A stretch of DNA of 64,000 bases from an uncultured Alphaproteobacteria bacterium (GTDB taxonomy: Bacteria; Pseudomonadota; Alphaproteobacteria; SHNJ01): NCBI GenBank assembly GCA_964647725.1, contig CAZYJI010000003.1:70121-134120 (forward strand). Reading direction: 5' to 3'. The notes beneath the pieces are model-generated. The model was not told the origin of the DNA. It did no database searches and was given only the letters and a program-made list of their open reading frames with translations. The position numbers and the translations under genes are program-made. Positions 20,574-41,184 of this stretch are shown piece by piece. Positions within the stretch are counted from its first letter, which is position 1; the number at the start of each line of letters is the position of its first letter.

Positions 20574-20675
20574 ATATTAGCCCTACGAAACGGTATTTAT
20601 TAAGGAAATAGCGCTTGACGCTGCGCTTATATTTTGCGAATTTGACGATCTATTAATTTAACAGCGAGAATAATA

Positions 20676-21911
20676 ATGACTTTTGTGTTTACCCCTGCCG
20701 ACCAAACAAAACGTATTAAGCCTTCCGCAACTTTAGCAGTTAACAATTTAGCCAGACAGATTGCGGAAGATCAAAAGAAATTGCCCGAAGAGAATCGTTT
20801 AGAAGTCATTGGATTTGCAGTTGGTGAACCGGACAAGCAAACACCGCCGCATGTCGGAGTGGCCATGGCGGAATTTGCCCATGCGGGGATCAACAGATAC
20901 TCTAAACCGGATGCGGCGACCTTGGTTCCTCTGATCCGAAAGAAGTTTCAAGATGATAACGGCTTAACCTATACCGACAAACAAGTTACTAGCGGTGTTG
21001 GTGGTAAGGAATTGGTGTTTTGGGGTATTGGCACTTGTGTGAACCCGGGCGATGAAGTCGTTATACCTGCCCCATATTGGGTTTCCTATCCTGAAATCGT
21101 CAATTATTTCGGCGGCACAGCCAAATCAATTGTGCCAACACGTTCGGATCTAAAAATCACGCCGGAAGAATTACGCGCGGCGATCACGCCAAAAACCAAG
21201 TTATTTATTATTAATCAACCTTCTAATCCTGCTGGCGTTGTATATTCTAAACAGGAATTGCTAGCATTAGCAGAAGTTTTGCGGGAAGCGGTCAAAACCA
21301 ATCCGAATCTGGTGATCATCACCGATGATATTTATGAAAAATTGGTATACGGAGCGGAGTTCTTTACATTGCCACAGTTGGCTCCAGATTTAGCCGAGCG
21401 CACCCTAGTAATTAACGGCATAAGCAAATCTCATGCTTTTACTGGGGGCAGATTTGGATTCTGCGGCGGCCCAGAGGCGTGGATTGGCGCGATTAATAAA
21501 ATGATATCGCAGTCCAGCACGCATGGACCAACCATTATACATGCTGGCGCAGCGGCGGCATTATCGGGGTCTTACGAATTTTTGGTAGAATGGCGCGAAG
21601 ATTATAAACGTCGGCGCGATTTTGTTCTAAACCGCTTGGAGGTAATGGGTATTCCGTGCGCAAAGCCAGATGGCGCTTTTTATGTATTTCCGAATATCTC
21701 CGGCGAATTAGGAAACGATCCATCCGTTCAAACAGACGAACAATTCGTTATGGCATTATTACGCAACCAACATGTTGCTTGCGTTCATGGAAGCGCGTTT
21801 GGCATGCCGGGATATATGCGTATTTCCTATGCGACATCGGATAGAAATTTAGAAGTTGGTTTAGACCGTATGGCACAATTCTTAAAAAGCCTGCGCCAAC
21901 GCGCCGCGTAA
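20676..21911 (+). CDS. PLP-dependent aminotransferase, class I (aspartate aminotransferase-like)
   Basis: Fold-type I aminotransferase; SKSHAFTG Lys motif. Confidence 0.85.
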   Translation: MTFVFTPADQTKRIKPSATLAVNNLARQIAEDQKKLPEENRLEVIGFAVGEPDKQTPPHVGVAMAEFAHAGINRYSKPDAATLVPLIRKKFQDDNGLTYTDKQVTSGVGGKELVFWGIGTCVNPGDEVVIPAPYWVSYPEIVNYFGGTAKSIVPTRSDLKITPEELRAAITPKTKLFIINQPSNPAGVVYSKQELLALAEVLREAVKTNPNLVIITDDIYEKLVYGAEFFTLPQLAPDLAERTLVINGISKSHAFTGGRFGFCGGPEAWIGAINKMISQSSTHGPTIIHAGAAAALSGSYEFLVEWREDYKRRRDFVLNRLEVMGIPCAKPDGAFYVFPNISGELGNDPSVQTDEQFVMALLRNQHVACVHGSAFGMPGYMRISYATSDRNLEVGLDRMAQFLKSLRQRAA

Positions 21912-22736
21912 TTACTTTTTAATAACGATATCGACGCGGTCTTTGGCGCCGGATTCTGGCGTGCCCATCGGCTTGACGCCCAATTGCGATCCGGAAACGC
22001 CCATGCCGATTAACGTATCACGCACTTGTAAAATGCGGGTCAATGCGGTGCGGCGCGCCTCGGCCGGGTTGTTTTTTGGCGCGGTGGCATAACCGCGCAA
22101 TTCCGCTGGGACATTCGATGCTTTTAATTTGCTGCCCACTTTTTTCACTTGGGCCATGCCGTTTGAATCCAAATCCGTTTCATCCTTATCGAATCCAACC
22201 GATCCGACCACCGTTCCGGCGACCGAATTTGGGCGCGTGACCGTAACATTGGCGCCGGCACCGCCGCGCGTGCGCGGATCAATATCGTTCCAACGGTACC
22301 CGCCATACATATTGCCGGCAATGTTAGTAACAAATTGGCCAGCAGCCGGAAAGAATCCACCAGCAGCAGCACGGAAAGAAGATTTTGGCGTGGCTTTGAA
22401 TTTACCGGATTTACGCGCGGTTTCGCCGAATACGACTTCGTTCAAATTGCTTTTCGGTTTTTTGCGCGGTGGCGGAGATAATTCACCCGAACGCGCCGCA
22501 TAATACGCGGCTTGATTCGCTTGTTTAGCGCCGGTGACCACAAATGGTTTATGCGATTGATATTCGGAATAATATTGCAAAGGCACGGTCGGTTCCGGTC
22601 CCAGATTTTGCATAATATATGGATTCACGACAACGGCATCGCGATACGGATATGCGGCCGCAGCCGATCCCGCGCAAACAGTGCCCGCGCAAATCAAAGC
22701 AAAAATCAATTTAGTTTTTTTGGACAAGAAATTCAT
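21912..22736 (-). CDS. OmpA-family protein (peptidoglycan-binding C-terminal domain)
   Basis: Signal peptide, Gly-rich middle region and an OmpA_C-like tail. Confidence 0.6.
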   Translation of the reverse strand: MNFLSKKTKLIFALICAGTVCAGSAAAAYPYRDAVVVNPYIMQNLGPEPTVPLQYYSEYQSHKPFVVTGAKQANQAAYYAARSGELSPPPRKKPKSNLNEVVFGETARKSGKFKATPKSSFRAAAGGFFPAAGQFVTNIAGNMYGGYRWNDIDPRTRGGAGANVTVTRPNSVAGTVVGSVGFDKDETDLDSNGMAQVKKVGSKLKASNVPAELRGYATAPKNNPAEARRTALTRILQVRDTLIGMGVSGSQLGVKPMGTPESGAKDRVDIVIKK

Positions 22737-22811
22737 CCCGGTTATTATAGCCATGTAAAATATAGAATTGGCAACAAACTGACAACCGATTTTTAAAATA
22801 TCCGGTAAATA

Positions 22812-23645
22812 TTAGGCTATTTTCGGTTTGGCCACCGATTCGATCTGGGCCAGGGTCTTAACACCCAACATTTCGGAAAAAGGCTTAATAATCTCGTTAT
22901 TAGCGGCAATGATATCCTTAGTCATGGCGGTCGCAGGCTGACCATTATAATCCACAACATAACCGCCCGCTTCACGGACCAATAAAATGCCTGCCGCGAT
23001 ATCCCATGGCTTCATATTCCGTTCCCAATACGCATCGAAACGCCCAGCCGCCATATAGGCCAAATCCAGTGATGCCGTTCCCATGCGCCGCACGCCGGAA
23101 ACTTGGGTCGATATGATTTCCAGTTCCTTATTGAATGTCGTGATATCGCCCTGGCCTTTGAATGGAATGCCGGTTGCGATCAAACACTGGCTGAAATCCT
23201 TGCGCGACGATACGCGTAAACGGCCCGAACGGTTGGTAAAAGCACCAGTGCCTTTTTCCGCCCAGTATGCTTCGTCATACAGCGGATGGTAAACAAACGC
23301 CGCAACAACCTCGCCCGCTTTTTCCAGCGCGACCGAAATCGCAAAATGCGGCACGGCGTGCAAAAAATTGGTGGTGCCATCCAGCGGATCGATGATCCAG
23401 CGATGCTCGCCATCGCCAACGACATCCGCGCCTTCTTCGGTCATAAAACCGAATGCGGGGCGGGCGCGTTGCAATTCTTCGCGCAAAATTTTATCGGCTT
23501 TGCGGTCGGCGGCGGAAACGAAATCGGCCGGGCCTTTTTTCGATACCTGTAAATGCTCGACTTCGTTAAAATCGCGCGTCAAGGATTTGCCCGCCTTGCG
23601 GCAAGCGGCTTCGACTACGGTTAACAGGGGCGATAATCTGGACAT
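22812..23645 (-). CDS. suhB: inositol monophosphatase family protein
   Basis: WIIDPLDGTTNF and the IMPase fold. Confidence 0.85.
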   Translation of the reverse strand: MSRLSPLLTVVEAACRKAGKSLTRDFNEVEHLQVSKKGPADFVSAADRKADKILREELQRARPAFGFMTEEGADVVGDGEHRWIIDPLDGTTNFLHAVPHFAISVALEKAGEVVAAFVYHPLYDEAYWAEKGTGAFTNRSGRLRVSSRKDFSQCLIATGIPFKGQGDITTFNKELEIISTQVSGVRRMGTASLDLAYMAAGRFDAYWERNMKPWDIAAGILLVREAGGYVVDYNGQPATAMTKDIIAANNEIIKPFSEMLGVKTLAQIESVAKPKIA

Positions 23646-24211
23646 TAGTTTTTGGCGCGTTCGATAAAGCTGCCATCGTCGGTGCGCACGACAACCATTT
23701 CGCCGCTGGCCATATATTGCGGCACCATGATGCGCGCGCCGTTCGACAATTTCGCGGTTTTAAATCCGCCTGATGCAGTTTGGCCCTTTACAACCGGTTC
23801 CGCTTCGACGATTTCCATCACTACCGATTCCGGCAACGTTACGCCCAATGGCTTGCCTTCGTGCATGGCGATTTGCACTTGCATGCCGTCTTGCAGGAAT
23901 TGTGCTGGCTCGCCGATCAAATCGCGGTCGACCACGATTTGTTCGTAATTTTCGTTATTCATGAAGGTCACTTGATCGCCTTCGGCGAACAGATATTGAT
24001 GCGCGACTTCATCGATGCGTACGCGTTCAACCACTTCGGTCGAAGAAAAGCGGAAATCTTTTTTATTGCCTGAGGCAACGTCTTTGGCCTCGACTTGGAC
24101 GAAAGCGCGCAGATTGCCTGGGGTTCTGTGTTCAACCTTGGTCACGGTCAAAAGTTTGGTTTCGACCTCGATGATATTGCCTGGTTTCAGGGCGTTGGCT
24201 TGGGTTTTCAT
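23645..24211 (-). CDS. efp: elongation factor P
   Basis: 188 aa; KPGNIIEVETKLLTVTKVEH ... KDVASGNKK. Confidence 0.9.
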   Translation of the reverse strand: MKTQANALKPGNIIEVETKLLTVTKVEHRTPGNLRAFVQVEAKDVASGNKKDFRFSSTEVVERVRIDEVAHQYLFAEGDQVTFMNNENYEQIVVDRDLIGEPAQFLQDGMQVQIAMHEGKPLGVTLPESVVMEIVEAEPVVKGQTASGGFKTAKLSNGARIMVPQYMASGEMVVVRTDDGSFIERAKN

Positions 24212-24285
24212 TTACCTACCTCTAAATAATTTGCCCGGCTTCCATGAATTTGGGGGCCGGGCCATTCAATTCTGGGGCGGAAAGT

Positions 24286-24306
24286 AGCAGAATCGCGTAG
24301 ATTCTG
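24286..24306. other. perfect 8-bp-arm hairpin GCAGAATC-gcgta-GATTCTGC just 3' of thiE
   Basis: Read directly from the sequence. Contains GAATC/GATTC (GANTC) sites. Possible terminator or operator. Confidence 0.3.
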
Positions 24307-24314
24307 CAACTTGA

Positions 24315-24935
24315 TTATATGCTTGAAATATAGAGTTTAAAGGCCTCTATGCCTGCTTTTGCGCCTTTATCATGTTCCCAAACCGCGGATACGACCGCGA
24401 TGAAATCCGCGCCTGCGTCGATTAACGGTTTGCAATTATCCGGCGTAATCCCGCCGATGGCAACGCACGGCACGGTGGTCAATTCCACCCAATCGCGTAA
24501 CAATTCAACCGTTGGACGATATCCCGAATCCTTGGTTTTGGTTGGATAGAACGCGCCAAAGGCGACGTATTCGGCGCCCGCATCCGCCGCTTTAAACGCC
24601 AGATCCTTGGAATCGTGACAAGTCACGCCGATCATTTTATTCGGACCCAGAATTTGCCTCGCTTCGGCATAAGGCATATCGCTTTGCCCCAAATGTACCC
24701 CGTCGCAATCGTACCGGTGCGCCAGATCGACATAATTATTGATGATCAGCGGAATGTCATGCGCATGGCATACTTCCAAAACCGGCTCGACGGTGCGTTC
24801 AATGGCGACCATTGGCATGTCTTGCAGGCGCAATTGGAATACCGAAATCAAACCAGTGGATAATGCCACATCCAATTCCGGCAAGAATTGGTCCAGAGAG
24901 ATTTGCGGCGGAGAGATTAAATAAAGTTGGGTCAT
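24315..24935 (-). CDS. thiE: thiamine-phosphate synthase
   Basis: TIM-barrel ThiE; MIGVTCHD ... VAFGAFYPTKTK. Confidence 0.85.
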   Translation of the reverse strand: MTQLYLISPPQISLDQFLPELDVALSTGLISVFQLRLQDMPMVAIERTVEPVLEVCHAHDIPLIINNYVDLAHRYDCDGVHLGQSDMPYAEARQILGPNKMIGVTCHDSKDLAFKAADAGAEYVAFGAFYPTKTKDSGYRPTVELLRDWVELTTVPCVAIGGITPDNCKPLIDAGADFIAVVSAVWEHDKGAKAGIEAFKLYISSI

Positions 24936-25999
24936 TAATGAATTATTGCTTGTAAACCGCGTAATATTTTTTCTGGATCGTATAGTTTGAATGCATTAAA
25001 AGCCATAATCGGCATAGCTGGATATTTACCGGCATCCGCAATCATTACAATATTAGGATAAGGATAGTATTGTGCTAGAATCCAGAACTTATCCGATTGT
25101 TCTTGTATATATACTACTCCCATTTTCATTCTTTCCTCGGCAGGGAATTTTTCAATCCAACTGCTAAAATATCTATCGGGCTTAATTCCAATTTGCGATA
25201 ACAAAACTGCATTTCCTGCAAAAATATAATTCATCCATGCTGTCAACCTGTCCGCCTGCGCTTTATATTCAGAATTACGCAGCAAAAGCTTAAAGTCTTT
25301 ATTGAATTGGTTAGAGCGGGCACATAATAACATTCCATCGCCTAAATTGTTAACCACCTTCAATTGAGGCGGTAAAGAAGTCATAGCCTGAGAGGAATAT
25401 ATAGGAAACAATTTTTCAGCCTGCTCCGCTACATCATATAACCGCTTTTGCAATTCTTTAATGTTATCATCCGGCGCATTTTTTCTAATCCACCCTTGTT
25501 GATAAACTGGAATCCGGTCGGAATTTATAAAACGCTCCCCATCCACAAAGGAAACTTTCATTATATTTGATACAATGCCAATTTGGAATACAATCGCCAT
25601 ATCATAAAGAGCGCTGTATAAAACAAAATTCTGCACTGTCGGATGGTTGATTCCTCCTACCGCAACTAATTGGGCGGTTGTAAGTATAGGCAACCAACAC
25701 GGATCAAATTCTGCTATGTCCGCGATCACCTCCTTTTTAGTTTCTCCTTCCTGTAAAATACCAGACAAACCTTTTTGCGAGGATGCTTGATGCACATTAC
25801 TCAAATACCTCAAATTGGATTGCAAGACTCCGGCTGATAACCGTGCATCAGCAACTGATATTCCAAATTTCTGTGTTAAATTGGATTGCAATTTGATCGT
25901 TTGCGCTTCGTCCAATTGTAAAATAGCTTGCGCTGTGACGACTTGGGCAAAAAACAATCCTAATAGAATTGTAAAAAGAAAAATACCCAATTTACTCAT
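24935..25999 (-). CDS. secreted hypothetical protein, low-GC gene
   Basis: Signal peptide MSKLGIFLFTILLGLFFAQVVTAQA. Sampled stretches are about 37-40% GC against roughly 50% in neighbours. 1-nt overlap with thiE. Confidence 0.5.
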   Translation of the reverse strand: MSKLGIFLFTILLGLFFAQVVTAQAILQLDEAQTIKLQSNLTQKFGISVADARLSAGVLQSNLRYLSNVHQASSQKGLSGILQEGETKKEVIADIAEFDPCWLPILTTAQLVAVGGINHPTVQNFVLYSALYDMAIVFQIGIVSNIMKVSFVDGERFINSDRIPVYQQGWIRKNAPDDNIKELQKRLYDVAEQAEKLFPIYSSQAMTSLPPQLKVVNNLGDGMLLCARSNQFNKDFKLLLRNSEYKAQADRLTAWMNYIFAGNAVLLSQIGIKPDRYFSSWIEKFPAEERMKMGVVYIQEQSDKFWILAQYYPYPNIVMIADAGKYPAMPIMAFNAFKLYDPEKILRGLQAIIH

Positions 26000-26001
26000 A
26001 A

Positions 26002-26964
26002 TCAGCTCTTCAAAATCGCGATCATATCGTCGAATAATTTCATCGCTTCGGCTTTAGGGCGTTGAAACGCGTTGCGGCCCATGATCGAACCATTACCGCC
26101 GCCCGCCTTGATCGCGCGCATTTCATCGAGAATCGAAGCCGTATCTTTCGCCTCTCCGCCAGAAAACACAACAAGGCGCCGTCCGTTGAAACAAGCCTGG
26201 GTAATATGTTTTACGCGATCGGCCAATGTGCCAACCGGAATTTTCTGTTCGGTATAGGATTTTTTCGCAGCTTCTAGCCAGATTACATCCGATGGCAATT
26301 TTACCTTAATCATATGCGCGCCGGCCTGGCATGCCATGTGCGCGGCATAGGCGACAACGTCAATCGCGGTTTCCGCTTCTTTCGGCAAAACGCCGCCGCG
26401 CGGATAACACCACACCACGGTTGGCAAGCCATGCGATTTTGCTTCAGCAATGATATCGCGCAATTCTTCCATTTGCGCGTTATAAGATTCCGATCCGTTA
26501 TACAGCGTAAATCCAACCGCCGTGCAACCCAAACGCACCGCATCCTTGACACTGCACAACACCGCTTGATCCGGATTGGTTTTATTCGACAACAACGAAT
26601 TGCCGTGATTCATTTTTAAAATTAACGGAATTTTTCCGGCAAAAGTTTCAACGCCGCATTCCAGCGCGCCAAGCGGCGCCGCATACGCGTTCAAATCCGA
26701 TTCGATGCCCAATTGATAAAAATAATGCGGATCGTAACAAACCGGATTCATCGCAAACGACCGTGCTGGCCCGTGTTCGAATCCCTGATCGACCGGCAAG
26801 ATAATCATCTGGCCGGTGCCGCCTAAGCGACCTTGCATTAAAATACGGCCCAAATTTTCTTTGGTCGCGCCACTGTCCGATTCATAATTTTTCAAAATCT
26901 TTTTTACGGTTTCAGATGGAGCAACAGATTTCGGCGGATGTTGGTTTTTCAAAACAGCGGTCAT
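26002..26964 (-). CDS. fbaB: class I fructose-bisphosphate aldolase (FbaB/DhnA-type)
   Basis: ILPVDQGFEHGP matches the FbaB ILPVDQGVEH motif. Confidence 0.8.
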   Translation of the reverse strand: MTAVLKNQHPPKSVAPSETVKKILKNYESDSGATKENLGRILMQGRLGGTGQMIILPVDQGFEHGPARSFAMNPVCYDPHYFYQLGIESDLNAYAAPLGALECGVETFAGKIPLILKMNHGNSLLSNKTNPDQAVLCSVKDAVRLGCTAVGFTLYNGSESYNAQMEELRDIIAEAKSHGLPTVVWCYPRGGVLPKEAETAIDVVAYAAHMACQAGAHMIKVKLPSDVIWLEAAKKSYTEQKIPVGTLADRVKHITQACFNGRRLVVFSGGEAKDTASILDEMRAIKAGGGNGSIMGRNAFQRPKAEAMKLFDDMIAILKS

Positions 26965-27049
26965 GGTACTACCTCTTTCAGGGCTGGTCTCGGCACTATT
27001 GGCGTATAGCGGATAATCTAGCCAATTCCGGTAATTTTGCCAAAGTTAT

Positions 27050-28009
27050 TTATGCCGATTTTTTGAATTTTTGATATTCGGGATTGACCAAAAAACGGTC
27101 TTGGCCAGTTTTCAATAAATTTAATATGCTATCTGTCGCCATGGCGCTGACTTTTCTGATCGAAGGCGTGGTATTGAACGCGGTCGACGCATTGGTCGTA
27201 TAACAGGAATAATATGGCATATTGTTCCAGCCGGAAAATTCATGGTCCGAAGCCACAAAAATTTCGCCCTTTTCAACGCGAGATTTCAACGCGGCCGCAT
27301 CGATCAATGCATTGGTGGAGATATTCACTAAAATGCTGCCTGGCTGCATTTTATGAATAATAGGTGCGGTTAATAAAGGGCTACCGGCCTTGGTATCAAT
27401 GCAAACCGCAATCACATTGCAAGTCGCGGCCAAATCCAACAAAGGCAGGAATTTCGCGCCGGTTACCGCCTCCGCTTCGGGCCGAGACGTGCGGTTATAA
27501 TAAAAAATTCCGGCCGGAGAAAAACCGCTTAGCATTTTTGCCAACGTCTGGCCGATATGGCCGAAACCAACGATGCCGATTTTGCTGTTGGCGAGGCTCG
27601 CGGCCGATCCGAACGAGGATTTTCCGCCAGCGCCGAATTTCAACAATTGACGCAATTGCATTAAAATCGTCGCCATCATGAATTCCGCAACCGCATAGGA
27701 AGGCCCACCCGGAGTGTTGCTAATTGCAATGCCTTTTTGCGTGGCAAGCTGATGGCCCGGAATAAAATCAGCATAACCCGCGCCGGTAAAAGAAATTGCC
27801 CGGAGTTTTTTTGTCGAAGCAATCACCTTGTCCGTTACCGATTCAATGCCGCCCAGAATGTACCCATCTGCATCTTGCAATGCGGCGATTAATTCATCTT
27901 CGGTGGCTTTAGGGTTATCCAAACGCGTAATCTCATATCCACCGGCGCGCAACCGCGCCTCGTCCTCCTGGTCGATAAACAAAGAGTCGGTGATCAGGAT
28001 TTTCGGCAC
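27050..28009 (-). CDS. D-isomer-specific 2-hydroxyacid dehydrogenase family protein
   Basis: GIVGFGHIGQTLAKML Rossmann motif and the 2-HADH fold. Confidence 0.75.
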   Translation of the reverse strand: MPKILITDSLFIDQEDEARLRAGGYEITRLDNPKATEDELIAALQDADGYILGGIESVTDKVIASTKKLRAISFTGAGYADFIPGHQLATQKGIAISNTPGGPSYAVAEFMMATILMQLRQLLKFGAGGKSSFGSAASLANSKIGIVGFGHIGQTLAKMLSGFSPAGIFYYNRTSRPEAEAVTGAKFLPLLDLAATCNVIAVCIDTKAGSPLLTAPIIHKMQPGSILVNISTNALIDAAALKSRVEKGEIFVASDHEFSGWNNMPYYSCYTTNASTAFNTTPSIRKVSAMATDSILNLLKTGQDRFLVNPEYQKFKKSA

Positions 28010-28018
28010 ATGTGCACC

Positions 28019-29023
28019 TTATATCATTTTTGCCATGACGGTTGCGGTATCGAGCATGCGGTTGGAAAAACCCCATTCATTATCGTACCACGACAATACG
28101 CGCGCAAGGCGTTTGTCGACGACTTGGGTTTGCGTGGCATCGAAATTGGATGAATGCGGATCGTGATTGAAATCGGATGATACTAATTCATCGGTTACAT
28201 ATCCAAGCACGCCTTTCAATCGGCCTTCAGCGGCTTTTTTCATTGCGGCGTTGATTTCTTCGGCCGTTACATCGCGCGGGCAAACGAATTTAAAATCGAT
28301 CATCGACACGTTCGCGGTTGGCACGCGCACCGATGTGCCATCCAATTTACCTTTCAATTCCGGAATCACCAAACCCAATGCCTTGGCGGCGCCGGTCGAT
28401 GATGGAATCATCGATAACGCAGCGGCGCGGGCGCGGCGCGGATCTTTGTGAATCGAATCGACCAATTTTTGATCGCCGGTATAGGCGTGCACGGTGGTCA
28501 TAAATCCACGCTCAATTCCAATTTCTTTCAAAATAACGTCGGCAACCGGAGCCAGGCAATTGGTGGTGCAAGAACCGTTCGAAATAACAATATGATCCTT
28601 CGCCAATTTATCGTGATTGACGCCATAAACGATGGTCGCATCGACGCCATCGGCCGGGGCCGATACGATCACGCGTTTCGCGCCAGCGGTTAAATGATGC
28701 GCGGCTTCTTCGCGTTTGGTAAAACGGCCGGAACATTCGAACGCAATATCGATGCCCATATCTTTCCATGGCAATTTGGCCGGATCCGGTTGCGCAACGA
28801 CAGCAATTTTTTGCCCTTGAATTTCAATCGAATTATCGGTTGTTTTCACATCGAATGGAAAACGGCCATGCACCGAATCATAACGCAGCAAATGCGCGTT
28901 CGATTTCACATCACCCAAATCGTTGATGGCGACAATCTGAATATCCTTGCGGCCCGATTCAAAAAGCGCGCGTAAAACCAATCGTCCAATCCTGCCGAAA
29001 CCATTAATTGCTACTTTTGTCAT
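28019..29023 (-). CDS. gap: glyceraldehyde-3-phosphate dehydrogenase
   Basis: MTKVAINGFGRIGR ... SCTTNCLAP. Confidence 0.95.
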   Translation of the reverse strand: MTKVAINGFGRIGRLVLRALFESGRKDIQIVAINDLGDVKSNAHLLRYDSVHGRFPFDVKTTDNSIEIQGQKIAVVAQPDPAKLPWKDMGIDIAFECSGRFTKREEAAHHLTAGAKRVIVSAPADGVDATIVYGVNHDKLAKDHIVISNGSCTTNCLAPVADVILKEIGIERGFMTTVHAYTGDQKLVDSIHKDPRRARAAALSMIPSSTGAAKALGLVIPELKGKLDGTSVRVPTANVSMIDFKFVCPRDVTAEEINAAMKKAAEGRLKGVLGYVTDELVSSDFNHDPHSSNFDATQTQVVDKRLARVLSWYDNEWGFSNRMLDTATVMAKMI

Positions 29024-29035
29024 TTTTACTCCAAC

Positions 29036-31042
29036 TTACTTTCCTAATTTAGACTTTGCCAATTCAACTACTTTGTCCGGCGTGATGCCGAAATGTTTAA
29101 ACAAATCACCCGCTGGCGCCGATGCGCCAAAGGAATTCATACCAACAAATCCGCCACCCGGACCGATAAAACCATCCCAGCCCTGACGCACGCCGGCCTC
29201 GATCGCGATTTTGACTTTGCTGTTGCCGATCACTTGCGATTGATACGCCGCATCTTGTTGTGCGAACAACGCGCAACATGGCACCGACACAATGCGCGTT
29301 GCAATACCTTGTGTATCCAATTTCGCCTTGGCATCCATCGCAACGCCAATTTCGGATCCAGTTGCAAACAACGTTACTGGCGCATTTGGTGCATCGACCA
29401 AAATATACGCGCCGCGCGCGGAGAAATTTTCGGTTGCATTATCGCGCACATGCGGCACTGCCTGACGGGTCAATGCAATCACGCTTGGGCCGTCCTGGCG
29501 GCTTAAGGCCAGTTCCCAGCATTCCGCAACCTCGACCGAATCGGCCGGACGGAAGAACCATAAATTCGGAATCGCGCGCAATGCGGCATAATGTTCGACC
29601 GGTTGATGCGTCGGTCCATCTTCGCCAAGCCCGATCGAATCATGCGTCATTACATAAATCACACGCTGATGCATGATCGCCGACAAACGAATCGCCGGGC
29701 GGCAATAATCCGTGAAAATCAAAAACGTGCCGCCATACGGAATAATCCCGCCATGCAGGCTCATCCCATTCATTGCCGCCGCCATACCATGTTCGCGCAC
29801 ACCGTAATGAATGTATGTTCCGGCATAAGTGGGCGCCGCAACAACGGTGTGCGTTTTGACCTTGGTATTATTGGATGGCGTTAAATCGGCCGAACCGCCG
29901 ACCATTTCCGGCAATAAAGGCTGAACAACTTCTAACACTTTGCCGGACGATTGACGGGTCGCCAATTTTTCGCGCTTTGCAATCAAATCGGCTTTGAATT
30001 TCGCCAAGGCTTCGGAAACATTGACTGGAATTTTGCCCTCTAAACGGCGGGTAAATTCAATGCGTTTTTCGTGGGCACCCAAGCGTTTTTGCCAAGCATT
30101 ATATTGTTCCGCGCCGCGCGCGCCGATGGTACGCCAGGCATGCAAAATATTTTGCGGAATTTCAAATTCCGGCGCATCCCAAATCAATTTCGCGCGCGTG
30201 CCGGAAATTTCTTCCGCGCCCAAGGGCGAGCCGTGCGAATCATGCGTGCCGGCTTTTTTCGGCGCGCCATAACCGATCACGGTACGACAAGCAATCATCG
30301 TCGGACGGTCGGATTTTTGCGCGCGTTGCAATGCGCCCGCGATTTCATCCGGCTTGTGGCCATCGACGCGTTCGGCGTTCCATCCAGCCGCCTTGAACCG
30401 CGCGACTTGATCGCCGGATTCCGATAAATGCAATTCGCCATCGATGCTGATGTTATTGTCATCAAACAGCACGATCAATTTACCCAATTTCATATGCCCG
30501 GCGAGCGAGATTGCCTCGTGGCTGATGCCTTCCATCAAATCGCCATCGCTGGCGATGTCCTAGGTGTAATGATTGACCAATTCATCGCCAAAACTGGCGT
30601 GCATAATTCTTTCGGCCAATGCAAATCCAACCGAATTGGCGATGCCTTGTCCCAATGGACCGGTGGTGGTTTCAATTCCGGCCGCATAACCATATTCCGG
30701 ATGGCCAGCCGTTCTGCTGCCCAATTGACGGAATTTTTTGATTTCATCGATGGTCATATCTTCATAACCGGTCAGATATAACAACGAATACAACAACATC
30801 GATCCGTGACCGGCCGATAAAATAAACCGATCGCGATCCGGCCAGGCGGGATTTTTCGGATCGAATTTTAAAAATTGGCTGAATAAAACCGTGGCAACAT
30901 CGGCCATACCCATCGGCATACCGGGATGACCGGATTTGGCGCGTTCGACCGCATCCATAGACAAAAATCGAATGGCGTTGGCCATTTGGTCATGGGGAAT
31001 GTCAATTTTAGGGGAAATTTCGATTTTCGCGGCTAACGTCAT
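29036..31042 (-). pseudogene. tkt: transketolase interrupted by a single in-frame TAG
   Basis: N-terminal 160-aa ORF ([12 protein letters not shown] ... ELVNHYT) and C-terminal 500-aa ORF (MEGISHEA ...) are in the same frame, separated by TAG at 30560-30562 where Tyr is expected. The GDG thiamine-diphosphate motif is still present. Confidence 0.7.
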
Positions 31043-31189
31043 ATATCCTCGGTTTTGTATATATTATAAGCATCACAATTAGGTCCAAAATCATCCACCG
31101 TCAACTGTTAAGCGAAAACTTTAAAGGTTGACGAAACAGAAATTCTATCCATAATTCGAAACCGTAACAATATACCACAGGGATTCCAC

Positions 31190-31447
31190 ATGACTGCACC
31201 AACCCCAGATTCTTCCAAAAGCGCGAGCGACCGTTTACTGGGCGCCTTGACCCGTTTAGAACAAGCCATTGGCGATATCGAAAAAAAGCTGAACACCATT
31301 GCTTCGGCCAATGACGACAAATTGAAAAATCTGGAACAGCAATTGGGATCGGTGAAACAGCAATATTCGCAGTTGAACGAAGTAACCCAACAAGTTGCAA
31401 CCAAGCTTGACGAAAATATGGAAAAACTGCGCAAACTGGCCGCCTAA
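31190..31447 (+). CDS. coiled-coil protein, ZauP-like (DUF4164)
   Basis: Small coiled-coil ORF immediately upstream of zapA, as in Caulobacter zauP-zapA. Confidence 0.5.
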   Translation: MTAPTPDSSKSASDRLLGALTRLEQAIGDIEKKLNTIASANDDKLKNLEQQLGSVKQQYSQLNEVTQQVATKLDENMEKLRKLAA

Positions 31448-31464
31448 TATTCAAAGGACATTCT

Positions 31465-31794
31465 ATGTCGCAAATATCCGTTCAAATCAATAATGTGCCC
31501 TATACCCTGGCTTGCGATGATGGCCAGGAATCCCAAGTGCGGGATTTGGCCAAATATGTCGACGCCAAAATTAGCGAATTGAAGAAATCCCTTGGCCATG
31601 TCGGCGAGGCGCGTTTATTGGTCCTAGCCGCGCTTAAACTGGCCGATGAACTGGCCGAAGCCTATTCCTATATCGATAAATTGGAGGGGCAAAAAGCGGA
31701 AACCCTGTCTTCAACGACCGCCCAGCTGGCCGCCAGCCAGATTGAGGGGCTGGTTAAGTCTATCGAATCTATCACCGCAAAACTAGCCGCGTAA
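31465..31794 (+). CDS. zapA: cell division protein ZapA
   Basis: VQINNVPYTLACDDGQESQVRDLAKYVDAKI. Confidence 0.75.
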   Translation: MSQISVQINNVPYTLACDDGQESQVRDLAKYVDAKISELKKSLGHVGEARLLVLAALKLADELAEAYSYIDKLEGQKAETLSSTTAQLAASQIEGLVKSIESITAKLAA

Positions 31795-31807
31795 TAACAA
31801 TTCGCAA

Positions 31808-32419
31808 TTACCTATTATTCTGACCAATCTTTTGTGCGCGCATCGCGGCCGTTTGAACCGATGGTATCACTCCGGCTTCGATGGCAGCCCTATCTACGGG
31901 GGCAATCATTTCTGGCGCGTTTCTGGTATAATAATTTTGTAACGCTGGATAATATTCCCGACCAAACCTATTGAACCATTCCTCGTTAGTCACTGCCTTA
32001 ATCAACGGTTGACTGAATTCAAAAGAAACTTCGCCATATCTTCCGTCAAAATCCAGCCTGGCTAATTGCAATTGGCCATCAATTCCTGGATAGGCACAAT
32101 ACGCCCAATAATCACGGCGATAATTATTCTCTTGTTGTTGGCATTTATTGCACCAAGAGCTAACAACCACCCTTTTGTAATACACTTCATAAAAAAATAA
32201 TGGGCTGCCTAACATTTCTGCCATTTGTTTTTCTTGAGCGGCAACCGCAGCGGCAATTTCCCGTTTTTCCTGTTCTGCCTGAGCTTCTTCCTCAGCCGCT
32301 CTTTGTTTTTCCCATTCTGCGAACTTTTCACAGCCTGATAACAAGGACAGGCTACATACCGCAACTGCTGCAGCTATTGCAGCTACGGGTAAAAAAGAGG
32401 CTTTATGCTGAATTTCCAT
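31808..32419 (-). CDS. hypothetical lipoprotein
   Basis: Lipobox LLSGC after a signal peptide (start MEIQHK). Low-GC body. Inserted between zapA and the predicted ssrS. Confidence 0.5.
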   Translation of the reverse strand: MEIQHKASFLPVAAIAAAVAVCSLSLLSGCEKFAEWEKQRAAEEEAQAEQEKREIAAAVAAQEKQMAEMLGSPLFFYEVYYKRVVVSSWCNKCQQQENNYRRDYWAYCAYPGIDGQLQLARLDFDGRYGEVSFEFSQPLIKAVTNEEWFNRFGREYYPALQNYYTRNAPEMIAPVDRAAIEAGVIPSVQTAAMRAQKIGQNNR

Positions 32420-32504
32420 AGCAATCTCCCCATGATCGAATGCGCCACATAATATCAACCATTTCTTTATTGGCAAATTTATTTTATTGGGGTCTGGATT
32501 AAAG

Positions 32505-32535
32505 TTGCCTAAAAGATTGATATGATTTATATAAT
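32505..32535 (+). promoter_or_regulatory. sigma70-like promoter (TTGCCT-N19-TATAAT) for the predicted 6S RNA
   Basis: Perfect -10 TATAAT at 32530-32535 places the transcription start at about 32542, the predicted 6S 5' end. Confidence 0.35.
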
Positions 32536-32540
32536 CTATT

Positions 32541-32705
32541 GGTAAGCGGCCTTTCGCGTTAGGGTGCATGCAACCCACCGGCCGATTAAAACTCTTCGGG
32601 AGCTGTCTCTGTCTGGGCCGTGGTTCAGGTATATGGTTCCCACCTGGTCTTTTGGGCCATGGCGGAGTTCATCGTCACCCAACGGTCACGGCGGCTTACC
32701 AACTT
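32541..32705 (+). ncRNA. ssrS: 6S RNA (SsrS), predicted
   Basis: The 5' GGUAAGCGGCC pairs with the 3' GGCGGCUUACC, and GGGUG pairs with CACCC, giving a long closing helix around a central region. About 165 nt, immediately upstream of 5-formyl-THF cyclo-ligase (the conserved ssrS-ygfA arrangement). Confidence 0.55.
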
Positions 32706-32714
32706 GGAATTTGA

Positions 32715-33293
32715 ATGACCGATCTTGAATTAGCCAAAAAATCCTTACGCGAAGAAGTTTTGAAAAAGCGCAGTGCCGTGCACAGCATGTCGCGCGAACG
32801 CGCCGCGAACACGATTCGCGATTTATTTTTACAAGCCTTGCCGTTACGCCCCGGTTCTATTGTCGCCGGATATTGGCCGTTGCCGGGCGAAGTAGATTCC
32901 ACCCCGCTTTTAAACGCGCTCGCGGAAAAGAAATTTGAAATTTGCCTGCCGGTTGTAACCGAACACGAATCGCCGCTGATTTTCCGCAAGTGGACGGTAG
33001 GGATGAATTTAGGCGAAGGGTACGCGGGTACGCGTATTCCACCAGCAGAATCGCCAATCTTAAACCCGGATATTTTGGTGGTGCCCTTGGTGGCGTTTGA
33101 CCGCGCCGGATATCGTTTGGGTTATGGCGGCGGGTTTTACGACCGCACCTTAAACGCCATGCGCGCCCAGCGGCAGATTATGGCGGTTGGATTGGCCTAT
33201 GCGGCACAACAAGTTCCCTTGGTCCCGCACGAAGGCACCGATGAAAAACTGGATTGGGTAGTAACCGAAGAACTGGCAATTAACTGTAATTAG
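32715..33293 (+). CDS. ygfA: 5-formyltetrahydrofolate cyclo-ligase
   Basis: GYWPLPGEVD ... GYGGGFYDRTL. Confidence 0.85.
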   Translation: MTDLELAKKSLREEVLKKRSAVHSMSRERAANTIRDLFLQALPLRPGSIVAGYWPLPGEVDSTPLLNALAEKKFEICLPVVTEHESPLIFRKWTVGMNLGEGYAGTRIPPAESPILNPDILVVPLVAFDRAGYRLGYGGGFYDRTLNAMRAQRQIMAVGLAYAAQQVPLVPHEGTDEKLDWVVTEELAINCN

Positions 33294-33309
33294 GCCTGTA
33301 TTCTTTAGA

Positions 33310-33338
33310 TTGACAAAAATATCCTGAAAAAATATAGT
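33310..33338 (+). promoter_or_regulatory. consensus-like sigma70 promoter TTGACA-N17-TATAGT
   Basis: Read directly from the sequence, about 28 nt upstream of the ORF at 33367. Confidence 0.4.
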
Positions 33339-33366
33339 CTCTACTATATAAAAATCAGGAGCCCGT

Positions 33367-33876
33367 ATGTCAGCCGCCATTGCCGAAGAACCACCAAAAG
33401 CAACAACATCTCCCAAACCTGCCAAAACCCAAAAAATTCTATTCCCGGGTTTTTCGAACGTAAATACTCAACCTAAGACAGCGGTATTCCGCGCCATGCA
33501 AGCGCCGCATGGTTACGATTTATCTATTTATCCCATAGTCGATGAGCCCGCGAGCCTGGAAAATTGCGCCTTGATCGTTACCGACATGCCGCATCAGGTG
33601 TTCGTTTATAATGAACTCAGTGGAGGCAGAATCCCGATCTTGTTTATCGGCGACAGACAAGCCCTGGAAAAATTGGGACCTCAATATTTAAAACTATCCC
33701 ACATACATACTTTGAAACCGCACAAAGGCGAAGTTCAATTGGGCAATCCAGGCGAACTTTTTGCCCCTACTACATACAGCGAAAGCCTGGTCCAACGCAT
33801 CAACGACAAAATCGCGCGGATCTTGCGCATTGACGCTGAACGCAAAAATCGCGCCGGCGAAAGAAGCAGCAAATAA
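33367..33876 (+). CDS. hypothetical protein with a degenerate receiver-like (CheY-like) layout
   Basis: Spacing of the conserved Asp (TDMP) and the K-P pair matches CheY D57 and K109-P110, but the N-terminal acidic pair is replaced by FPG. Confidence 0.4.
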   Translation: MSAAIAEEPPKATTSPKPAKTQKILFPGFSNVNTQPKTAVFRAMQAPHGYDLSIYPIVDEPASLENCALIVTDMPHQVFVYNELSGGRIPILFIGDRQALEKLGPQYLKLSHIHTLKPHKGEVQLGNPGELFAPTTYSESLVQRINDKIARILRIDAERKNRAGERSSK

Positions 33877-33915
33877 TAATTCGACAATAGACCGGTTTTA
33901 TTTTATTTAAACGTT

Positions 33916-34704
33916 ATGAAAATTCTTTTCCTTGGCGATGTGGTGGGCCGTTCGGGCCGTGATGCGGTGATCGGCAATTTGAGAAAATTGCGCGCCGAAC
34001 ACGCCATCGATTTCACCATTATCAATGTCGATAACGCCGCGCATGGATTCGGCGTAACGCCCGCCATTGCCGAAGATTTTTTTGCCGTCGGCGCGGATTG
34101 TTTGACGCTGGGCAATCATGGATTCGATCAAAAAGAAATTCTAACCGTACTGGACAAAGAATCCCGTTTGATTCGCGGCAATAATTATCCCAAAGGTACA
34201 TTGGGGCGCGGGCAAAATATTTTCGCCCTGCCCGATGGCCGCAAAATCGCGGTAATACACACAATCGGCCGCCTGTTCATGGATGTTTTGGATTGCCCAT
34301 TCCAACGCACCAACGATGATTTGCAAAATCTGCGGCTCGCCGGAAATGTGCAGGCGATTTTTGTCGATATTCATGCCGAAGCAAGTTCCGAAAAAATGGC
34401 GATGGGTCATTATCTTGATGGCCGCGTTAGCGCGGTTGTCGGCACGCACACCCATATCCCAACATCCGATTTAATGATTTTCCCAGGCGGCACCGCGTAT
34501 CAAACCGATGCCGGCATGTGCGGCGATTACAATTCGGTGATCGGTTTTGTCAAAGACACGCCGATTCAACGTTATGTCCGTAAAATGCCGACGATCAAAT
34601 TAGAACCCGCGCTTGGCCCCGGACAAGTGCGCGGTTGTGTTGTCGAAACAGACGATAAAACCGGATTGGCAAAATCCATAACTCCAGTTTGTGTCCGGTC
34701 ATAA
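33916..34704 (+). CDS. YmdB-family metallophosphoesterase (TIGR00282)
   Basis: MKILFLGDVVGRSGRDAV ... GNHGFD ... GTHTHIPT. Confidence 0.8.
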   Translation: MKILFLGDVVGRSGRDAVIGNLRKLRAEHAIDFTIINVDNAAHGFGVTPAIAEDFFAVGADCLTLGNHGFDQKEILTVLDKESRLIRGNNYPKGTLGRGQNIFALPDGRKIAVIHTIGRLFMDVLDCPFQRTNDDLQNLRLAGNVQAIFVDIHAEASSEKMAMGHYLDGRVSAVVGTHTHIPTSDLMIFPGGTAYQTDAGMCGDYNSVIGFVKDTPIQRYVRKMPTIKLEPALGPGQVRGCVVETDDKTGLAKSITPVCVRS

Positions 34705-34814
34705 AATAACCTAATAAACAGCGGATAAGTTTCAGGCTCGGAATCCGACCGCTTGACGAATCTATTATACAGGCAGAGTATCTTTCTAAGCTATAACGCA
34801 GCTGAGAGGGCGAA

Positions 34815-35600
34815 ATGAATCATAAAGGGCGAAATTTAGGCGCTTTCATTGCCGGTCTTGGTTTTTTGGGGCAAATTACTTCCGCCCCGGCGCGGGATAT
34901 TCCTCATCATCACACCAACATAGGCAATATTGGTTTCTTTGAACCAAAGCAAGATAAACCCGAAGTGACGCCCTATGGCATTCGGCGCAATGTCAAAGAA
35001 TTGGTTCCGATGCCGCTTGCCCCGAGGGAAGCGAGAAGAAATCAAATCGCCGGCGCGGTTGCTGATCATGAAATTTGGTTTGGCGAACAAGATGCCTTTA
35101 AGATAGAAGTGCTGCGGATTTATACGGATTGCGCCGGAAATTGGGTTGGGAATGATCCAGGACCGGTAGATCTTGAAATATCGGCATGGAAAACCGCTAT
35201 GGTAAACGGCAAACTGGTGTGGCAGTTGGTGGTCGATCCCAAAACCGGGATACAAGACGATGCGGCTACCCTTAACGCGATTAGGGATTTAAAAACCAGA
35301 ATTGATGAAGGCAGTAAAAACAATCTGAATGCTCCCACGCCCTTGCTGAGGGTATTGTATGGGGAAATAACCGTGGATTGGGTAATCCTTGGCCAAGGCG
35401 CAATACCGACTTTTGTTGTAGAAGCATTGGATTGGTCCACCACCAATGGCAAACCGTACTTAAAAGCATTCAGCGAATTCTTAGGCCAGACGATAAAATT
35501 GGGCAATCACTTACTGCCGCAATTGGGACAAGCGATCAACCTGCCGCCGTCCAGCATGGTCATTGCAGCAGCCAGAAACCGCGCCAGGCAATATACCTAA
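34815..35600 (+). CDS. hypothetical protein, possibly exported
   Basis: N-terminal hydrophobic segment; no recognised family. Confidence 0.4.
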   Translation: MNHKGRNLGAFIAGLGFLGQITSAPARDIPHHHTNIGNIGFFEPKQDKPEVTPYGIRRNVKELVPMPLAPREARRNQIAGAVADHEIWFGEQDAFKIEVLRIYTDCAGNWVGNDPGPVDLEISAWKTAMVNGKLVWQLVVDPKTGIQDDAATLNAIRDLKTRIDEGSKNNLNAPTPLLRVLYGEITVDWVILGQGAIPTFVVEALDWSTTNGKPYLKAFSEFLGQTIKLGNHLLPQLGQAINLPPSSMVIAAARNRARQYT

Positions 35601-36469
35601 GCGCTGTCCAATTTTTCGAGGAATTTGGCGATATGTTCCAACACCAAACTGGAATCATGCGCCTTGCGTTTGGCGACGACAACTTCTAATCCTTCGATCA
35701 ACAACTGGCCGATTTCGCCGCCAATACCTTTGATTTTCTTGCGAACCACAACATGCAACGAATCGATATGGAATTTGATCAGCATCATATCCATTTTTTC
35801 TGGCGCGCCCATACCTTCGGTCAGCTTGCACAACGAATCGGCGATACGGCTGATTAGCGGATATCCATACGATCCGCCACCGCTTTTGATTTCATGGGCT
35901 TGGGCAAATAATTTGGCGACATTTTCCTTGCTGCGATCCGGAAAATGTTGTAGCGCCTGAAATGTAACGCTTAGTTCACGCAGATCCTTTGGCGCTATTC
36001 CTTCGATATAAGATACGGCCAAATTTTTAATCACCTCGGTGGCGCGGATAAAAATTCCAGCCTCGAAACCTGTTGCGCCTTCACCGACTTTTTTCTTAAG
36101 CTTATTCACCGGATGCAAAAATTCGACCAGCGTTTCGGCTTTGTCCATTTGCGGCGGCGGCCCGGCATCGACGGTAAAATCCTGTACCATGACTTCGGGA
36201 CGTTTTTTACGCATCGCGCCAGAACCAGTATCGGATGTTGTTAGCGCGGAAGATGGCGTGGATTTTACGGATGACGCCGGAGAATTCTGTGAATAATCCT
36301 GCACCATCACGTCGGGGCGTTTTTTACGCATCGAATTTTGCGCCGGTCCCGCAGCAGTAGGATTTGATGGAACGGCAGGAGATTGACCGGCCGAAGATTT
36401 ATCCGCTGGCGGCTGATCCTTGGTGGCGTCGATCACATCTGGTTTTTTGCCGCGCCGGCGAAAAATCAT
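35597..36469 (-). CDS. Hpt (histidine phosphotransfer) domain protein with N-terminal Pro/Ser-rich region and tandem repeat
   Basis: AQAHEIKSGGGSYGYPLI fits the Hpt H-x-LKG-x5-G motif. Two copies of MRKKRP(D/E)VMVQD, seen as an imperfect direct repeat of about 36 bp in the DNA near 36185 and 36295. Confidence 0.55.
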   Translation of the reverse strand: MIFRRRGKKPDVIDATKDQPPADKSSAGQSPAVPSNPTAAGPAQNSMRKKRPDVMVQDYSQNSPASSVKSTPSSALTTSDTGSGAMRKKRPEVMVQDFTVDAGPPPQMDKAETLVEFLHPVNKLKKKVGEGATGFEAGIFIRATEVIKNLAVSYIEGIAPKDLRELSVTFQALQHFPDRSKENVAKLFAQAHEIKSGGGSYGYPLISRIADSLCKLTEGMGAPEKMDMMLIKFHIDSLHVVVRKKIKGIGGEIGQLLIEGLEVVVAKRKAHDSSLVLEHIAKFLEKLDSA

Positions 36470-36478
36470 CGCATCACC

Positions 36479-37069
36479 CTAAAAATCGTCGGACAGGCCA
36501 AGGCCTGGATCCGACAATCCCAAATCGCCACCCAAATTGGACCGGCGACGTTCGACACCGTCATAAAAAGTTTGTTCTTCTTTTTTGCGGCGCCGGTCTG
36601 GCCCGAAATAAGTTTTGGTGCGCACGAACGGACGCGGATTTTCAATGACCGATTGAATACGCGCGGCAAGTTCCTTGGCCGAAATCGGCTTTGCCAGAAT
36701 TTCATTGATGCCGATATCGCGCGCAGCGGTGACCCGGAATTGTTCGGTATAGCCGGTAACGGCGATGATTGGAATAAAAGGATCGGGGCTGTCTTTGCCT
36801 TTGCGCACGCGGTCGATGAAATCCATGCCACTGACCGGCTCCATCACCAAATCGCATAAAATTAAATCGTAACCGCCGGCGGCAAGTTTTATGAACGCTT
36901 CGCGGCCATCACTGGCTTCTTGGATTGCGCCCACGCCGAATACGTTTAAAAGCGAGCGGATCAAATTGCGCATATGTTTGCTGTCGTCAACGATCAGCAC
37001 GTTTAGCTTGTCTAATTTGTAAGTTTGTTCAGTCATTAAAAACAACCAGATACTAAAAAGTGCCGCCAT
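36479..37069 (-). CDS. single-domain response regulator with a C-terminal arginine-rich extension
   Basis: Receiver motifs LIVDDS, LILCDLVMEP and AKP, followed by a roughly 70-aa tail (GPDRRRKKEE ... VERRR). Lies 9 nt upstream of the Hpt gene. Confidence 0.8.
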   Translation of the reverse strand: MAALFSIWLFLMTEQTYKLDKLNVLIVDDSKHMRNLIRSLLNVFGVGAIQEASDGREAFIKLAAGGYDLILCDLVMEPVSGMDFIDRVRKGKDSPDPFIPIIAVTGYTEQFRVTAARDIGINEILAKPISAKELAARIQSVIENPRPFVRTKTYFGPDRRRKKEEQTFYDGVERRRSNLGGDLGLSDPGLGLSDDF

Positions 37070-37255
37070 TAGAAGAGCAAAATACGGATAAAAAGCGGTT
37101 AACCGCCCCTTATACCCACAAGATATAGGCGTTTACAGTATAGATCTGCCATAGTAAGTGGGCTATAAAATAAGGGAATTTGCACGCAATTGGACGCCGG
37201 ATAAAGGCCGGTTGTCGACATATTTACAACGTCTTAGCAAGGTTTTGGATCGCAC

Positions 37256-38011
37256 ATGGCAGGCCATAGTCAGTTTAAGAATATTATGCACCGTAAGGGC
37301 GCGCAGGATAAAAAGCGCGGCAAAATATTCACCAAATTAATCCGCGAGATCACAACCGCCGCCCGCGCTGGCGCGCCGGATCCAAATACCAATCCCCGTC
37401 TTCGCGCCGCCGTCACCATGGCGCGCAACGCCAATATGCCCAAAGACACGATCGAGCGCGCGATCAAACGCGGCAGCGGCGCGGACGGCGCGGATAATTT
37501 CGAAGAAATCCGGTACGAAGGATATGGCCCAGCCGGTATTGCCATTATCGTCGAAGGATTGACCGACAACCGCACCCGCACCGCTGGCGAAGTTCGCGCC
37601 GCGTTTGCCAAGCATGGTGGAAATCTGGGCGAAACCGGCAGTGTCAGTTTCATGTTCGAACATATCGGCGCGATTTTATATCCCGTCAAAACCGGCAGCG
37701 CCGATAAAATGCTGGAGGCCGCGATTGACGCTGGCGCAGGAGATGTCGAATCCACCGAAGACGGGCATTTCATTTCTTGCGCGCCCGGCGATTTAAATCA
37801 TGTGCGCGATGCCTTAGAAAAACAATTTGGCGAGGCCGAAAGCGTAAAATTATCCTGGAAACCGACCAATCTGGTTCCGGTTCCCGAAGAAGCCGCGAAA
37901 GATTTATTGAAACTGGTCGAAGTATTAGAAGACAATGACGACGTGCAGAATGTGTACGGCAATTTCGACATCGACGCGGCGGTAATGGAAAAACTGGCCA
38001 ATGCCGGATAA
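37256..38011 (+). CDS. YebC/PmpR family DNA-binding regulator
   Basis: [28 protein letters not shown]. Confidence 0.9.
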
Positions 38012-38513
38012 ACCGCAACGCATTTTGGGCATCGATCCCGGACTTGTCCATACGGGCTGGGGGATTGTCGATTGCCAAGGCAATCAATTGCGTGGCATCG
38101 CCAGCGGCACGATTTCGGCCAGCACGAAACTGGAAACCGCCCAGCGCCTGCAATATATTTTTGAACAATTATCCGCCATAATCACCGAATATAAACCCAT
38201 GGCGGCAGCGGTCGAAGAAAGTTTTGTCGCGCAAAATTCCGCAAGCGCCCTGAAATTGGGCATGGCGCGCGGGATTGCCTTGCTGGCGCCAGCGGCGGCT
38301 GGCGTGCCAGTATGCGAATACAGCGCCAAGCTGGTCAAAAAGGCGATTGTCGGAACCGGCAATGCCGATAAAAATCAAATGTTTTTAATGGTCCAGCGTT
38401 TGTTAAAGGGCCTGATAATTGAATCCGAACATGCAGCCGACGCGCTGGCGATTGCCATTTGTCACGGCCACCACGCCCAAACGCAACAAAAATTTCATAT
38501 AAAATCCGCATAA
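38001..38513 (+). CDS. ruvC: Holliday junction resolvase RuvC
   Basis: [17 protein letters not shown]. Confidence 0.9.
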
Positions 38514-38610
38514 AAACACGGTGGATGACCCAAAATAAGCGGTTGAATTCGCCGCCGATCCGGGCTATGCAATCCTTATCTTATTGATCCATTTTTACGA
38601 GGAATTCCCC

Positions 38611-39285
38611 ATGAACTTTTCCCAAATTTTGAAAGAGCGCATTGCGCCTTTGAATCTGCTCAATCACCCATTTTACCAAACCTGGAACATGGGCGAATTG
38701 TCCAACGAAACATTGCAACATTATGCCGGACAATATTTCCATCATGTGTCTGCATTCCCCCGTTACATCAGCGCGACTCATTCGATCTGCGAAGATATTT
38801 CCAAGCGTAAATTATTGCTGGAAAACTTGGTCGACGAAGAAAACCGCGGCACCGATCATCCGGAATTATGGATGCAATTCGCCGAAGCTTTGGGCGCATC
38901 CCGCGAAGACGTGAAAAAAGCGGTCTTGGCTGGCGAAACCAAGCAATTGATCGAAACATTTTTCTCGTTCTGCCGTAACACCTATGCCGAAGGTTTGGCA
39001 TCGTTGTACGCGTACGAACATCAGATCCCGGAAATCGCCACCGTGAAAATCGACGGTTTGAAAAAATTCTATGGCGTTGAATCGGACCAAGGATTGAAAT
39101 TCTTTACCGTTCACCAAGAAGCCGACGTGTTTCACCGTGAAGCATGCGAAAAATTGCTGGATCAATTGAGCCCGGCCGAACAAGAACAGGCATTAAACGC
39201 CGCTGAAACCACCGCGAAAGCGTTGTGGAACTTCTTGTCGGGCGTTCAATCGACCTACGAATGCGCCTCTGGCTGCAAACATTAA
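38611..39285 (+). CDS. CADD-family diiron protein (CT610-like; candidate pABA synthase)
   Basis: HPFYQTWNMGELSNETLQHYAGQY, LVDEENRGTDHPELW, YAYEHQIPE and HQEADVFH (H-x3-D-x2-H) match the CADD dimetal ligand spacing. RBS GAGGAA upstream. Confidence 0.7.
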   Translation: MNFSQILKERIAPLNLLNHPFYQTWNMGELSNETLQHYAGQYFHHVSAFPRYISATHSICEDISKRKLLLENLVDEENRGTDHPELWMQFAEALGASREDVKKAVLAGETKQLIETFFSFCRNTYAEGLASLYAYEHQIPEIATVKIDGLKKFYGVESDQGLKFFTVHQEADVFHREACEKLLDQLSPAEQEQALNAAETTAKALWNFLSGVQSTYECASGCKH

Positions 39286-39313
39286 TAGACTTAACAGTCT
39301 GTTATCTGGAAAA

Positions 39314-39344
39314 GGGCGGGTTTATCCCGCCCTTTTTGTTTTTA
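39314..39344 (+). terminator. rho-independent terminator after the CADD gene
   Basis: gggcggg-tttat-cccgccc followed by tttttgttttt. Confidence 0.6.
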
Positions 39345-39403
39345 TCCCAGACCCCCGTTCCCTTGTTTGACTTTATCATTTCGGCAATAGTATAGTTCTT
39401 GAT

Positions 39404-40036: not shown

Positions 40037-40109
40037 AAATCCTCCTTCGCCAAGGCTTCGGAGGACAGGCCGCTCACGTTTGTATTTTCAGTAAGAATGA
40101 AATATTGAA

Positions 40110-41144: not shown

Positions 41145-41184
41145 TCATTTTAAAAACCGCCAAATCCGTCTATAACCCTTTGTT

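Follow-up and report, generated by a model that had tools for sequence, protein, structure and literature searches.

The DNA analyzed here, a stretch of 64 kb from an uncultured alphaproteobacterium that is hereafter called the window, carries on its minus strand a gene for transketolase (tkt, 29036-31042), which starts with the ATG at 31042, ends with the TAA at 29036-29038 and comprises 668 codons besides this terminator; minus-strand translation reveals a single internal stop, at codon 161. This codon is an in-frame TAG at 30560-30562 (CTA on the plus strand), directly followed by GAC, encoding Asp162, at 30557-30559. The initial annotation had described the frame as continuous across 29036-31042 but for this TAG, which is borne out both by the translation and by matches in register to the TIGR00232 profile. 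The 160-residue N-terminal part covers profile positions 2-145 and the C-terminal part of about 500 residues covers positions 154-651 (232.5 and 563.9 bits, respectively, when scored separately), so that the two parts belong to one split gene.

A protein equal to that of the window but with Tyr161 and Val162 (P0121) scores 831.5 bits against the TIGR00232 cutoff of 682.25 and thus qualifies as a full-length equivalog. The gene product contains all of the Transketolase_N, Transket_pyr and Transketolase_C domains, as well as the motif binding thiamine diphosphate (ThDP) and the divalent cation (SDGDLMEG...DDNNISIDG in the window), and the best PDB match of the repaired protein is 4xeu_A, aligned end-to-end over its residues 14-669 (E = 4.6e-222). 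In domain composition and in this end-to-end alignment the protein is equivalent to bacterial transketolases of the TktA type (TIGR00232; 4XEU, 2R5N). It differs from them by the TAG of codon 161 and the GAC of codon 162, in the window assembly alone, and, together with its whole clade, by a metal-binding loop reading SDGD instead of the commoner GDGC, which is a normal minority variant.

Residues around the internal stop and the two gene fragments

The interruption falls on a conserved Tyr of the ThDP segment, as had been proposed from the DNA alone: codon 161 aligns with the second Tyr of the HYTY stretch in solved transketolases, and the equivalent residue is Tyr in 120 of 121 full-length homologues, the remaining one having Phe. 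The residues flanking the stop had also been considered unusually divergent, but this holds for Asp162 only. Position 162 is occupied by Val in 92 of the homologues, Ala in 27 and Thr in two, never by Asp, whereas the SDGD form of the metal-binding loop is normal for the clade, being present in 20 of the 121 sequences (GDGC in 99, SDGC in two). Judged from these alignments, which for the flanks also included the closest relatives with 98%, 76% and 75% identity, the abnormal residues are exactly two adjacent codons, Tyr-Val being replaced by stop-Asp.

The split gene corresponds to two protein records, namely an N-terminal fragment of 160 residues (P0127; 30563-31042, minus strand) and a C-terminal fragment of 499 residues that starts from the ATG at 30535 (P0122; 29036-30535, minus strand). 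The former ends ahead of the SDG...NN motif that binds ThDP and the metal, while the latter begins past the metal-binding Asp, as placed relative to the ATG at 30535 by translation and by established knowledge of the ThDP motif. The 499-residue restart product is therefore predicted to be one that could not rebuild the cofactor site and, since the shorter product is devoid of the cofactor motif altogether, neither fragment would be expected to be active.

Gene neighborhood and strain variation

The tkt gene heads a string of genes of central metabolism, all encoded on the minus strand. Located 12 bp downstream is the gene for type I glyceraldehyde-3-phosphate dehydrogenase (gap, 28019-29023; TIGR01534, 437.6 bits versus a cutoff of 367.2), followed in the same string by that for class I fructose-bisphosphate aldolase (fba, 26002-26964; NF006704, 475.9 bits versus a cutoff of 277). 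The succession of tkt with gap and fba is also found in related strains. No gene for tal, rpe or rpi and no second tkt was found within the 64-kb window, and a scan of genome contigs with the transketolase protein returned relatives of at most 64% identity among the matches listed.

Two genes of the string vary among strains. One encodes a D-2-hydroxyacid dehydrogenase (27050-28009, minus strand) and lies between gap and fba; the other encodes a protein of 354 residues with no match in Pfam or NCBIfam (24935-25999, minus strand) and lies between fba and thiE. Both occur in the strain of the window and in the SRR2852027x contigs; a strain with 92% identity (L001) lacks them and has gap, fba and thiE directly adjacent to one another. 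These two genes constitute strain-variable gene content inside a string of central metabolism. A comparable situation is found at pfk, which is adjoined by a gene for a solute-binding protein of the SBP_bac_3 family (9414-10298) in the window and in contig L102 but not in contig L101 (SRR27901409). Elsewhere in the window, positions 3461-4228 encode a protein with a COQ9 domain (PF08511, E = 1.2e-29).

The sequence identity between the window and a second strain (L088) varies along the DNA, being 100% over 21615-21917, 96.7% over 21912-24937, 92.7% over 26001-26964, 93.6% over 28020-31772 and 99.7% over 32539-43293, with a similar mosaic in another contig (L083). From these identity values, we read the mosaic over 21615-43293 as the probable result of recombination between co-existing strains.

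The locus and its private substitutions in independent assemblies

We retrieved contigs for comparison by exact-sequence look-up of the GAPDH of the window and of neighboring proteins. At the site where CAT TAC ACC TAG GAC ATC stands in the window, five contigs with 99.7-99.9% identity all have CAT TAC ACC TAT GTC ATC. The two differences, expressed on the plus strand, are C instead of A at 30560 and T instead of A at 30558. The TAT GTC form is present in more than 10 other public assemblies, including eight Logan assemblies from runs SRR28520271-79, and also in two contigs of the 92%-identical strain; further contigs encoding the intact protein P0121 derive from six sequencing runs. In all these other assemblies the frame is uninterrupted, with Tyr at codon 161 and Val at codon 162.

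The closest comparison is provided by assembly GCA_013565695.1, two contigs of which (JACCDT011895317.1 and JACCDT010270191.1) span positions 12410-30869 and 31248-43293 of the window, 30,506 bp in total, and differ from it at 30558, 30560 and 17103 only, without any indel. (This metagenome assembly is interrupted at 30870-31247, where tkt begins and its upstream DNA lies, the gap being about 300 bp away from the TAG; strain heterogeneity may be the cause.) For the part of the window beyond 43 kb, only short contigs were retrieved, four of which match it completely over 51292-56373 and 56485-57823.

Protein records show the same distribution. In the protein-cluster index, intact P0121 is found on 6 contigs, the longest of 380,240 bp, while the fragments P0127 and P0122 are on record on one NCBI contig only, of 172,521 bp, from which the window evidently derives. 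On the strength of these sequence records the TAG GAC variant evidently stands in the deposited record and nowhere else, the other assemblies of the same strain being in mutual agreement. Neither allele was encountered when JGI metagenome contigs were scanned for degenerate exact matches to the site and its surroundings, and a search of the literature gave no match for the assembly, run or protein accessions.

The two bases in tkt are not the only ones private to this assembly. A cluster of four substitutions lies within 31 bp of purK (6889-6919, minus strand), comprising L127S, E128D, a synonymous GCC>GCG and I137S; it is restricted to the 172,521-bp contig, all other assemblies agreeing with each other, and a contig of 1,803 bp from GCA_020049755.1 (L107) is identical to the window except for these purK substitutions. 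A single private change at 17103 lies in the gene for an NAD(P)H-quinone oxidoreductase (qor, 16160-17155, minus strand), where CCG>CAG produces P18Q in a GGPEVL stretch, the Pro of which we take to be conserved in the quinone oxidoreductase family. The Gln form (P0125) again occurs in the 172,521-bp contig only, whereas the Pro form (P0124) occurs in 8 contigs. (The gene purE, adjacent to purK, shows a variation of another kind: at 7439-7443, a compensating pair of 1-bp indels 4 bp apart distinguishes the window from contigs of SRR28520271 and SRR28520277, with restoration of the frame, and is not seen in the same-strain contig L107.)

There are thus seven private substitutions, which form three patches within about 38.7 kb of DNA of the same allele and are accompanied by no indels. 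Six of the seven change the protein, at positions that are conserved or, in the case of the qor Pro, presumably so, while 19 of the 153 natural differences in tkt (12%) are non-synonymous. Six of the seven are also transversions, compared with a natural transition to transversion ratio of about 2:1 (76:39 and 103:52). If the sites are taken as independent, the natural spectrum would yield each of these patterns with a probability below 1%, a value weakened by there being only three patches. This excess of transversions and of protein-changing bases indicates that selection has not acted as a filter on the private changes; besides being private, they are clustered.

The sequence context of the private sites was also considered. 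All seven lie 1-11 nt 3' of a GGC, a triplet found within 8 nt of 34% of random positions. The nearby DNA offers no convincing donor or template from which the mutant 12-mer could have been copied, the matches having two mismatches and being no better than chance, and template switching is not supported either, since inspection of the flanks by eye indicates that just one of the two changes extends an ATCGCC...GGCGAT stem. Of note, the tetranucleotide CTAG is strongly depleted in the window, with 19 occurrences versus about 249 expected from base composition, and the only CCTAGG of the window results from the private change to TAG GAC.

Origin of the TAG codon and its significance

The hypotheses initially advanced for the interruption were a recent pseudogene, a sequencing error or a read-through site. 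Our analysis retains the error, or else a very fresh null allele, but neither read-through nor an old or decaying pseudogene; these two, together with reassignment of the codon, are collectively very improbable. A programmed read-through or suppression of TAG, by a suppressor tRNA or near-cognate pairing, would produce full-length transketolase and would agree with the perfectly kept downstream frame and with a stop that is one base away from a Tyr codon. However, the stop is conserved in no relative and not even in the same strain, for the codon is TAT in the other assemblies and the residue almost invariably Tyr in the homologues, and the read-through product would carry Asp at position 162 where all 121 homologues have Val, Ala or Thr. 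Additionally, the site has no match in Rfam, its local fold is unremarkable, with a z-score of -1.25, and the sole tRNA of the 64-kb window is a tRNA-Met. TAG also works as a genuine stop elsewhere, as had been noticed at the outset for folP (50063-50860), since it terminates about 17 other ORFs. All this makes recoding highly improbable.

The same termini bear upon a reassignment of TAG to a sense codon in this organism, the least credible of the explanations considered, in favor of which there is nothing beyond the single in-frame TAG. The ORFs ending in TAG do so at lengths typical of their families, for example RuvB with 344 residues and Def with 190, and reading TAG as sense would merge just three other pairs of ORFs (purE with purK, exbD with the next gene and a response regulator with the next gene), the members of each pair being neighboring genes that were called separately and represent different families. 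With one gene affected and TAG in use as a terminator, reassignment is refuted within the window.

The internal stop and the lack of tal, rpe, rpi and a second tkt in the 64 kb could be accounted for if tkt were an old pseudogene, or a redundant paralogue in decay once the non-oxidative branch of the pentose-phosphate pathway had been lost. Against this, the gene is under strong constraint, with a dN/dS of 0.034 in the comparison with the 92%-identical strain, a value similar to those of its neighbors in the same comparison (0.019 for gap and 0.022 for fba). The ratio is equally low before the stop (0.029) and after it (0.035), which excludes an old pseudogene; moreover, there are no indels or other lesions, two bases are the sole difference from intact copies of the same strain and the gene order with gap and fba is conserved. 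The near-identity with intact alleles refutes this explanation, to which we assign a negligible likelihood. The locus does resemble the nonsense pseudogenes of bacterial genomes in having one premature stop and a conserved enzyme gene divided into two called fragments, but it differs from them in that selection is not relaxed, other lesions are lacking and sister assemblies do not have the stop. The TAG allele, if real, is no older than the sampled population.

A real allele of such recent origin would have arisen by a single multi-nucleotide mutation, for instance through error-prone translesion synthesis, that converted Tyr161-Val162 into stop-Asp and inactivated tkt in the sampled population. 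We regard this as possible though rather unlikely. The variant is present in a deposited NCBI assembly and not in one read, the private purK and qor changes might be the trace of a mutator lineage or of one exposed to damage, and the absence of indels speaks against crude long-read error. On the other hand, it would have struck a strongly constrained gene, leaving one product lacking the cofactor motif and another lacking the metal-binding Asp, and, as we infer from the gene order, a stop at the head of tkt-gap-fba could lower downstream expression by polarity. The allele is present in no other sample, and, if real, it could be tolerated only with a paralogue or with another route to ribose-5-P and erythrose-4-P. 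Furthermore, three damaging patches in about 39 kb, if real, imply that several hundred such lesions have been fixed genome-wide. That TAG GAC and the purK and qor changes together represent real mutations, clustered, rich in transversions and unselected, which became fixed in one natural sub-population (following, for example, a burst of SOS or translesion synthesis, or a severe bottleneck), is a doubtful proposition.

The explanation we favor, with a probability of about 0.65, is that TAG GAC would be a consensus or base-calling error of the deposited assembly; from the sequence comparisons presented here, the TAG interruption is most likely not a real feature. Under this explanation, the gene would be that of an ordinary functional transketolase heading the tkt-gap-(2-hydroxyacid dehydrogenase)-fba string of an uncultured alphaproteobacterium, TAG would be half of a two-base difference from TAT GTC that is present in the deposited assembly only, and the window would contain at least two more such small patches in which substitutions are erroneous. 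The two changes are 2 bp apart in otherwise identical DNA, which points to one local event rather than two independent mutations, and the strong constraint on tkt counts in the same direction, as does the number of lesions that would have to be fixed across the genome if the three patches were real.

Other considerations weigh against an artefact. A short-read consensus at normal coverage seldom contains substitution errors, and errors of the Illumina type are normally lost from the consensus unless coverage is low or strand-biased; the usual signature of long-read error is missing, given that there are no indels versus other assemblies; and error-prone translesion synthesis can also generate clustered transversions in a lineage that really exists. 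The private changes nonetheless share several features with the sequence-specific errors of Illumina sequencing, for which GGC is a known context (Nakamura et al. 2011; PMC3141275). Like these errors, they are clustered substitutions without indels, private to one assembly and lying a few bases 3' of GGC, near short inverted repeats; they differ in that the putative miscall equals one of the two preceding reference bases in just four of the seven cases, which is not above chance. The proximity of the private sites to GGC offers weak support for an error of the Illumina type.

The significance of the split gene resides mainly in quality control. Calls of this kind can be unmasked simply, by comparing the locus among independent assemblies of the same strain and by examining the private differences for signs of selection or of its absence. 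A real allele would represent an ordinary knockout of very recent date and of limited general interest, and its fixation in a natural sub-population would mean that a free-living alphaproteobacterium has newly given rise to a transketolase-null lineage. The split tkt of the deposited assembly provides no ground for postulating loss of the non-oxidative pentose-phosphate pathway, recoding or a change in the genetic code. Under either of the leading explanations, the transketolase of this organism is a standard enzyme and the TAG codon carries no biological signal.
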